64,000 nucleotides of DNA from assembly GCA_963514005.1 (NCBI GenBank), contig OY740798.1, positions 11,098,001 to 11,162,000 on the forward strand, given 5' to 3'. Under the pieces are notes generated by a model. It saw only the letters and a list, made by a program, of their open reading frames with translations, did no database searches and was not told the DNA's origin. Position numbers and translations under genes: made by a program. The stretch comes from Raja brachyura (lineage: Eukaryota). Below, one piece after another: positions 10,246 to 10,642 of this stretch. Positions within the stretch are counted from its first letter, which is position 1; every line of letters starts with the position of its first letter.

Positions 10246-10348
10246 TAATTTCTTTCGAAATTGGCAAACGAGCAAGAAATTATCTTGAATTGATCGTAAA
10301 ATGGTAATACTCCCCCCTGCCATTTAAGGGTTTATTTTTGTATTGTAG

Positions 10349-10428
10349 ACCCAATGTTGATGCAAAACAAAATTAAGTTTGAAACTTTTTTTCATAACTT
10401 TGGCACACGCCAAATTGATGCAATATTG
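10349..10428 (+). pseudogene. Degenerate duplicate of the exon 5a acceptor and 5' half (candidate pseudo-exon or poison exon)
   Basis: gccatttaagggtttatttttgtattgtag|ACCCAATGTTGATGCAAAA versus the true gccatttaaggtatatttttgtattgtag|ACCCATACTGATGCAAAA. TGA is at codon 4. Possible donor TTG|gtacgt at 10429. Confidence 0.6.
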
Positions 10429-10471
10429 GTACGTTTCCCATTGCCATTTAAGGTATATTTTTGTATTGTAG

Positions 10472-10513
10472 ACCCATACTGATGCAAAAGTCCAAGTAGT
10501 GGATAATCGAAAA
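10472..10513 (+). CDS. pax6: Pax6 alternative exon 5a (42 nt, THTDAKVQVVDNRK)
   Basis: tgtag|ACCCATACT...CGAAAA|gtaagc; 14-aa in-frame insert homologous to human THADAKVQVLDNQN. Confidence 0.95.
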
Positions 10514-10642
10514 GTAAGCTCAACATTGTTTAACTATATCTAAATATCTACATAAATATATACTATCAAACTAAAAGAGCCATTTCATTTGTTAAACATT
10601 ATTTGATGTCTTTGCTTTCCGCTTATGCTTGTGCACTTATAG

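Follow-up and report, generated by a model that had tools for sequence, protein, structure and literature searches.

A decayed duplicate of Pax6 exon 5a in the skate Raja brachyura and an upstream RNA arm complementary to both acceptors

Intron 5 of the skate Pax6 gene contains, directly upstream of the alternative exon 5a, a diverged copy of that exon's acceptor and first nucleotides, and a single inverted element further upstream is complementary to both acceptors. The feature is real, and its function is unproven. We tentatively favor an explanation that could well be wrong, namely that a dead exon-5a duplicate would be kept silent by a competing RNA helix formed with the upstream arm. The duplication, the stop codon, the complementarity and rarity of the arm and the predicted folds are direct results of the analysis; we infer the age of the duplication, the ends of its units, pairing in vivo, the silence of the copy and any selection acting on it.

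The skate Pax6 gene lies in the window, by which we mean the whole 64,000-nucleotide stretch analyzed here and in which all positions are counted; exons 5, 5a and 6 were placed on its + strand, as were the intron-5 elements described below. Exon 5 (9941..10071, N part of the paired domain, donor CAG/GTAAAC) is 131 nt long, the length tabulated for human, dog and mouse in PMC2647561. Exon 5a (10472..10513, 42 nt, donor AAA/GTAAGC at 10514) encodes THTDAKVQVVDNRK, and exon 6 (10643..10858) is 216 nt long. The 5a peptide equals that of gene models from Amblyraja, Leucoraja and Rhinoraja and, in Fig. S2 of PMC4488758, that in the row for Leucoraja erinacea, and later Pax6 exons differ from each of those three models by at least one residue. 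Protein models of sharks and a chimaera also include 5a isoforms; among skate, shark and ray models the number of residues inserted at 5a is either 0 or 14, a set that is uninformative on stop-bearing isoforms. A 1997 report is said to have described conserved introns around 5a. As in the vertebrate exon 5a splicing treated in passages of PMC3554528 and PMC4488758, the skate exon is a 42-nt cassette between exons 5 and 6 with the same TAG acceptor as human; unlike the situation in those passages, which mention none of these elements, the skate locus has a duplicated acceptor, an upstream complementary arm and a predicted acceptor-exon hairpin.

A tandem origin for the copy had been proposed in an earlier, sequence-only reading of this DNA, and our alignments bear the proposal out. 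Positions 10334-10353 and 10457-10476 carry the same 20-mer, ATTTTTGTATTGTAG followed by ACCCA; the two acceptor AGs (10347-48 and 10470-71) are 123 nt apart; and the copy does read ACC CAA TGT TGA, with a 1-nt insertion producing the TGA at 10358-10360. Local alignment of 10288-10367 with 10413-10489 scores 73, which was reached by 0 of 2,000 dinucleotide shuffles (maximum 41), and no near-tandem match scored higher when the window was scanned with one exon neighborhood and an N gap excluded. Five other near-tandem matches in the scan score at least 50, and we take these to be SINE-type, tandem or simple repeats. Tandem Repeats Finder did not detect the duplicated unit, and an Rfam search over 9900-10900 gave 0 matches at E values up to 1.

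The copy had been described as a branch, tract and acceptor region with ~19 nt of exon. That region is confirmed, but the description stopped short, as homology reaches further upstream, to ~10249 in the copy versus 10386 in the true unit. Taken alone, the homology of the upstream flank is matched by 67 of 3,000 shuffles, and that of the tail through the donor by 575 of 3,000, which is not significant. A global alignment places the units head to tail (10249-10385, then 10386-10524) and has the copy lacking 19 nt of exon; the core of the decayed upstream unit (10249..10385) is certain and both of its ends are weakly supported. The copy's acceptor region (10317..10348) consists of a branch-like TTTAA with its A at 10326, a pyrimidine tract and a TAG acceptor, and matches positions −30..−1 of the true site at 29 positions, with 1 substitution and 1 indel. 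Its counterpart (10441..10471) has a branch-like TTTAA (A at 10450), tract and TAG acceptor, and the two A's would act as branch points. These elements are all intact in the copy, and from −20 to +3 its acceptor string is a single base away from that of true 5a. Next comes what is left of exon 5a's first 18 nt (10349..10367), which contains the insertion and stop codon and has G as the first base of codon 3 (Ala-type), and then, after the 19-nt deletion, a possible dead donor (10369..10378) that reads AAAATTAAGT against the true AAAAGTAAGC, with TT for GT at 10373-74. Judged by sequence, the copy certainly comprises an acceptor and the beginning of an exon; plausibly, it is the remnant of a duplicate of the whole exon-5a unit with a dead donor. 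The insertion and TGA disable its reading frame, so no protein-coding exon can come from it, and its body is U-rich and intron-like.

Other repeat-like motifs are visible in the same region. Sequences resembling TGATGCAA occur at about 10290, 10357, 10415 and 10479, a 62-nt periodicity by eye. At 10410-10423, a third motif resembling the start of exon 5a matches 10474-10487 at 12 of 14 positions, with a candidate donor at 10429 downstream; counted with those at 10290 and 10357, it forms a series spaced at roughly 60-65 nt, which may reflect an older duplication or chance.

An assembly artefact can be ruled out, as the two copies differ from each other and the locus is present in several sequencing runs. 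Six of the 20 listed runs, which carry 3 organism labels from 3 studies, one possibly the window's own source, contain all (1.00) of the 89 words sampled from 9942-10858. Eight of the 20 contain 0.28-0.33 of the words, close to the exonic share of 0.32, with the RNA type guessed and organisms that may differ in the intron; five contain 0.06-0.07, again with the RNA type guessed. No RNA run is listed for 9942-10858, and this blank carries no weight in either direction.

The duplication appears to be old. At 5a codon 3 the true exon reads ACT (Thr); once the inserted base is disregarded, the copy reads GTT there. The residue at codon 3 is Ala in Callorhinchus (C. milii), Scyliorhinus (S. canicula), human, coelacanth, zebrafish 6.1a and most bony vertebrates; three skates and the stingray Hemitrygon have Thr. 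Because the copy carries the pre-batoid, Ala-type G, parsimony would place the duplication before the batoid Ala-to-Thr change; an ancestral GCT accounts for GTT and ACT with one change each, so the event would also predate the split of skates and stingrays, ~200 million years ago. We regard this age as probable, with the argument turning on one base whose reversion would undo it. Divergence of the upstream flank between the copies is 30% (18 events in 59 columns) and is compatible with an old event. The Hemitrygon akajei model (P0123) has Asn rather than Thr as its first 5a residue, in a codon that adjoins the acceptor at the edge of a predicted hairpin loop.

What might an intact acceptor upstream of exon 5a do? 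The sequence-only reading envisaged a poison exon or competing acceptor, in which use of the copy's AG would either extend 5a to 165 nt or create an 80-nt cassette ending at TTG/GTACGT (10426..10434, GT at 10429), and either product would be a target of NMD. Such decay would lower productive Pax6 or Pax6(5a). Translation of both products does give premature stops, upstream of later junctions, and the 5a donor (10514) indeed lies 165 nt downstream of the copy acceptor; an exon of 165 nt is of a more usual size than one of 42 nt, which counts in favor of this idea, as do the intact branch-like motif, tract and AG. In a crude U1 duplex test, the 10429 donor is about equal to the 5a donor (−4.9 vs −4.5). 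Its counterpart in the copy is ATG/GTAATA at 10304. The proposed 10428-10472 junction does not stand, as it would need a 43-nt intron, implausibly short for a vertebrate, with the donor 21 nt from the branch-like A of the true site. Given that distance and the steric limits on splicing, the 80-nt cassette would exclude 5a instead of joining it. As in poison exons and AS-NMD generally, any product of the skate copy would meet a stop early, long before the last junction; the evidence that defines a poison exon is inclusion, NMD sensitivity and deep conservation. The main wild-type products reported for human minigenes in passages of PMC11936725 and PMC9863980 include no such isoform, although humans need not have the copy. 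A match between the dog sequence GTAAGT and skate GTACGT was considered and dismissed, with four published dog and human primers near 5a matching this intron no better than shuffled sequence does (fractions 0.18-0.88).

A more useful lead is an inverted arm, overlooked in the earlier reading, whose complement in each copy spans the tract, the AG and the first base of the exon. The core of this arm (10198..10213), 120 nt upstream of the copy acceptor, is complementary at 15 of 16 nt to the copy (10334-10349) and to the true 5a acceptor (10457-10472). A possible extended arm (10191..10239), gappy and with uncertain boundaries, gives a duplex of −27.7 kcal/mol with the true unit versus −23.5 kcal/mol with the copy, values reached by 9 and 56 of 500 shuffles, respectively. 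The arm match is equaled by 2-3 of 3,000 shuffles for the true acceptor region and 27-45 of 3,000 for the copy or, under stricter scoring, by 18 of 2,000 for each acceptor. In a background scan that excluded one exon neighborhood, 3 of 540 acceptor-like sites in the window have a match scoring at least 27 within 400 nt upstream, these being the two copies and a site at 35749, so that among the other 538 sites a comparable arm occurs once; the remaining eight rows for Pax6 acceptors, of which those for exon 5 and exon 12 are 1 and 3 nt off the junction, score 11-15 versus 27. The perfect block shared by the copies (−16..+4) nearly coincides with the footprint of the arm (−15..+1). The arm is AT-rich and was found post hoc, and its core duplex amounts to only −12.6 kcal/mol.

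Several other observations concern the same part of the window or similar structures elsewhere. At ~35480-35750, a 19/20 inverted match lies upstream of the acceptor-like site 35749, the sole background site to beat the arm's score. Intron 5 has further short inverted repeats: a palindrome, a 14/16 pair spanning the inferred unit start and a GC-closed hairpin (10151-10164, 10239-10289, 10399-10414). The reading frame of exon 5 stays open for 59 codons into intron 5 and crosses the arm (9895-10248 of the window); a protein search with this read-through frame over the arm found no database protein sharing words with it and no ortholog candidate. Some mammalian models have a 25-residue read-through at the same place after exon 5, matching a 73-75-nt retention after exon 5 reported for human minigenes in a passage of PMC11936725.

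Predicted folds, which are for naked RNA and shift with the chosen transcript end, suggest how the arm might be shared. With transcript ends at 10360-10440, arm-copy pairing reaches probabilities of 0.85-0.93, and the unpaired share of the copy's tract and AG is 7-8%, both at 37 °C and at 15 °C; with the pair span capped at 150-200 nt, the arm-copy pairing is 0.63-0.92. At a transcript end of 10480 the arm moves to the true acceptor (0.91-0.93), and at ends of 10520-10560 it is back on the copy (0.77-0.93), with a mixed outcome for the whole intron; for longer transcripts at 37 °C, pairing with the true acceptor is also given at 0.56-0.83. Folded whole, the intron is slightly more stable than its shuffles (z −2.3) and shows the true-site fold. 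When each pairing is forced, the arm+copy and arm+true ensembles differ by 0.2-1.5 kcal/mol at 37 °C, and arm+copy is favored by 1-5 kcal/mol at 15 °C. Thus, in silico, one element is complementary to two duplicated elements in mutually exclusive pairings of similar energy. The true acceptor is additionally predicted to form a local hairpin with the body of exon 5a (10457..10491, −9.6 kcal/mol, 11 of 2,000 shuffles), a stability matched or exceeded at 4 of 121 composition-matched acceptor-like sites, the true site included. The copy's equivalent hairpin (−6.1 kcal/mol, 230 of 2,000) is not better than shuffles.

These predictions argue against use of the copy as a poison exon, as its tract and AG would be ~92% paired when first made, and of the four explanations that we weigh this one is the least supported and, in our judgment, improbable. 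They fit more easily with masking. In the mechanism that we prefer, an old head-to-tail duplication would have copied an exon-5a unit of ~140 bp in skate Pax6, and the upstream copy would then have decayed by a frameshift and stop, an internal deletion and probably loss of its donor while retaining a normal-looking acceptor. During transcription the arm would meet the copy first, pair with it and hide it from U2AF and U2. The copy would thus be spliced rarely or never, with no poison product of note, and the true acceptor would be governed by its own exon hairpin and, part-time, by the same arm. Any mutation that unpaired the copy without killing its acceptor would lay open a splice site that leads into a stop codon, in a gene sensitive to dosage, and this cost could explain why preservation is best under the arm footprint. 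Masking would therefore supply a reason for the copy's preservation without any splicing to it.

The same folds could instead make the copy an RNA decoy that competes for the arm and frees the true acceptor, raising or buffering 5a inclusion and setting the Pax6:Pax6(5a) ratio without itself being spliced. The near-equal energies of the two forced pairings are what a decoy would need, and removing the upstream unit in silico gives a pairing probability of 0.88-0.91 between the arm and the true acceptor; the better fit of the extended arm to the true unit also looks as if the arm had evolved for that unit. The human 5a acceptor is sensitive, with c.142-139T>C raising 5a inclusion (PMC7093334, in part), and the isoform ratio matters (passages of PMC6947179). 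However, even when the copy occupies the arm, the predicted folds leave the true tract mostly paired with its own exon (unpaired 0.08-0.14 for ends of 10520-10560), so the gain may be small; 5a isoforms also exist in sharks and chimaera, which may lack the copy. On balance we doubt that the copy is a decoy. Still further from what we would expect is a stronger version, in which 5a inclusion is set by an arm-acceptor helix that is possibly ancient in jawed vertebrates and the dead copy has been kept for ~200 million years in skates and rays as a selected decoy setting the Pax6:Pax6(5a) ratio. Tuning of this ratio, suggested earlier as an effect of a competing acceptor, is possible and would more likely operate through RNA pairing than through acceptor competition.

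Is the copy's acceptor kept by selection? The core (−30..−1) has 2 events in 31 columns versus 18 in 59 for the upstream flank (Fisher p=0.008), so the earlier observation that the acceptor is better preserved than its surroundings stands. The suggestion drawn from it, that preservation hints at function, is weakened, as constraint on the true site alone can account for the difference. A lizard gene model that reads through the acceptor gives KVYFCVIDP versus KVYFCIVDP in skate, and the base at −3 of the human 5a acceptor is T, as in skate (c.142-139T>C, in part of PMC7093334, with the position obtained from sizes in PMC2647561). If the true acceptor is constrained, only the copy drifts within the core and the expected rate halves; at half the flank rate (the one-copy null), p=0.13 for the 2 core events. 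With the rate left at the full flank value, as applies if the true upstream flank is also constrained, p=0.0013, and preservation beyond drift would then speak for a poison exon; on the one-copy null that signal is gone. The copy's branch region (−31..−20), mostly beyond the footprint of the core arm, is also well kept, which would suit a working acceptor. The copy's AG would be retained by chance with a probability of 0.66-0.81 at 10-19% change per site. Overall, conservation makes a weak argument for function of the copy.

A neutral relic has to be weighed against this background: a pseudo-exon undergoing slow decay in a genome that itself evolves slowly, with an arm that is irrelevant, whether a chance match or an inverted template-switch piece, and a copy that the spliceosome would ignore for want of a matching donor or enhancers. 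The fit of the one-copy null to the core and the high chance retention of the AG agree with such a history, as do the U-rich, intron-like body of the copy, the stronger inverted match at the unrelated site 35749 and the end of the extended arm ~10 nt before the inferred unit start, where an inverted by-product might end. By contrast, an inverted piece that was both old and neutral would be expected to have diverged as the flanks did (18/59), yet 15 of 16 pairs persist over the tract and AG, and a similar arm is found at only one of the 538 other sites. Moreover, with acceptors one base apart and a working donor at 165 nt, masking seems needed. We therefore think a relic unlikely, though far from negligible, and continue to favor, tentatively, a silent copy held by the arm.

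The locus has partial parallels in known systems. Competing RNA structures that arise by duplication of one arm of a stem-loop are discussed by Ivanov and Pervouchine 2018 (PMC6071210, in part), with Dscam1 and Ate1 as cases, and the skate geometry is the one that they predict for such a duplication. As in the docking site/selector model described there, one upstream skate element is complementary to two tandem duplicates and can pair with one at a time, and the origin would likewise be tandem duplication of an exon with flanking intron (passages of PMC6071210 and PMC9013439). Unlike that model, pairing in skate covers the 3′ splice site and so should mask rather than expose the exon, and one of the duplicates is dead; the skate locus is a candidate case of the pattern. 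Passages of Ivanov and Pervouchine 2022 (PMC9013439) deal with unannotated or decayed tandem exon duplicates, which the skate copy resembles as a diverged intronic tandem copy with an acceptor; it differs in that the unit is very short (~140 bp), the gene is a conserved developmental regulator and the frame is broken at codon 4.

The possible consequences depend on which explanation holds. The Pax6:Pax6(5a) ratio alters DNA-binding specificity and matters for eye development (passages of PMC6947179), and it shifts with a one-base change at the human 5a acceptor (part of PMC7093334). Little on cis-elements that set this ratio was found in the open-licence literature. A real arm-acceptor helix would provide a concrete element to test in any vertebrate and would make the skate locus a natural case of a competing RNA structure made by duplication, with a dead exon as one of the partners; a copy that is only masked or a neutral relic would be a modest evolutionary curiosity and a candidate batoid marker. 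The passages on 5a in PMC3554528, PMC4488758, PMC6480603, PMC6947179 and PMC2647561 make no mention of a duplicated acceptor or complementary arm, nor do the relevant parts of PMC3602429, PMC3291524, PMC7093334, PMC11936725 and PMC9863980. More generally, no description of the Pax6 copy or arm was found in text passages of the open-licence PMC and bioRxiv literature.

Metagenome contigs and the remainder of the skate gene supplied additional observations. A degenerate 5a motif had 0 matches among metagenome contigs, and with an exon 6 query a 5a-like peptide was present in 0 of the best 80 of 273 confirmed loci. One metagenome contig (L001, 927-1142) has a vertebrate-like Pax6 exon 6 with 96% identity, possibly fish pax6.3, and neither exon 5a nor exon 5 was found in the 926 nt upstream of it. 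In the skate window, a 158-N assembly gap (21529-21686) directly follows the exon-8 equivalent. After the exon-11 equivalent, a 99-nt intron (27832-27930) is open in frame for 33 residues and is apparently retained, with a similar peptide, in models of three skates, a stingray and a catshark; human Pax6 intron 11 is 2577 nt long (PMC2647561, in part). The skate intron looks like a case of conserved in-frame intron retention, within the transactivation domain, in elasmobranch Pax6.
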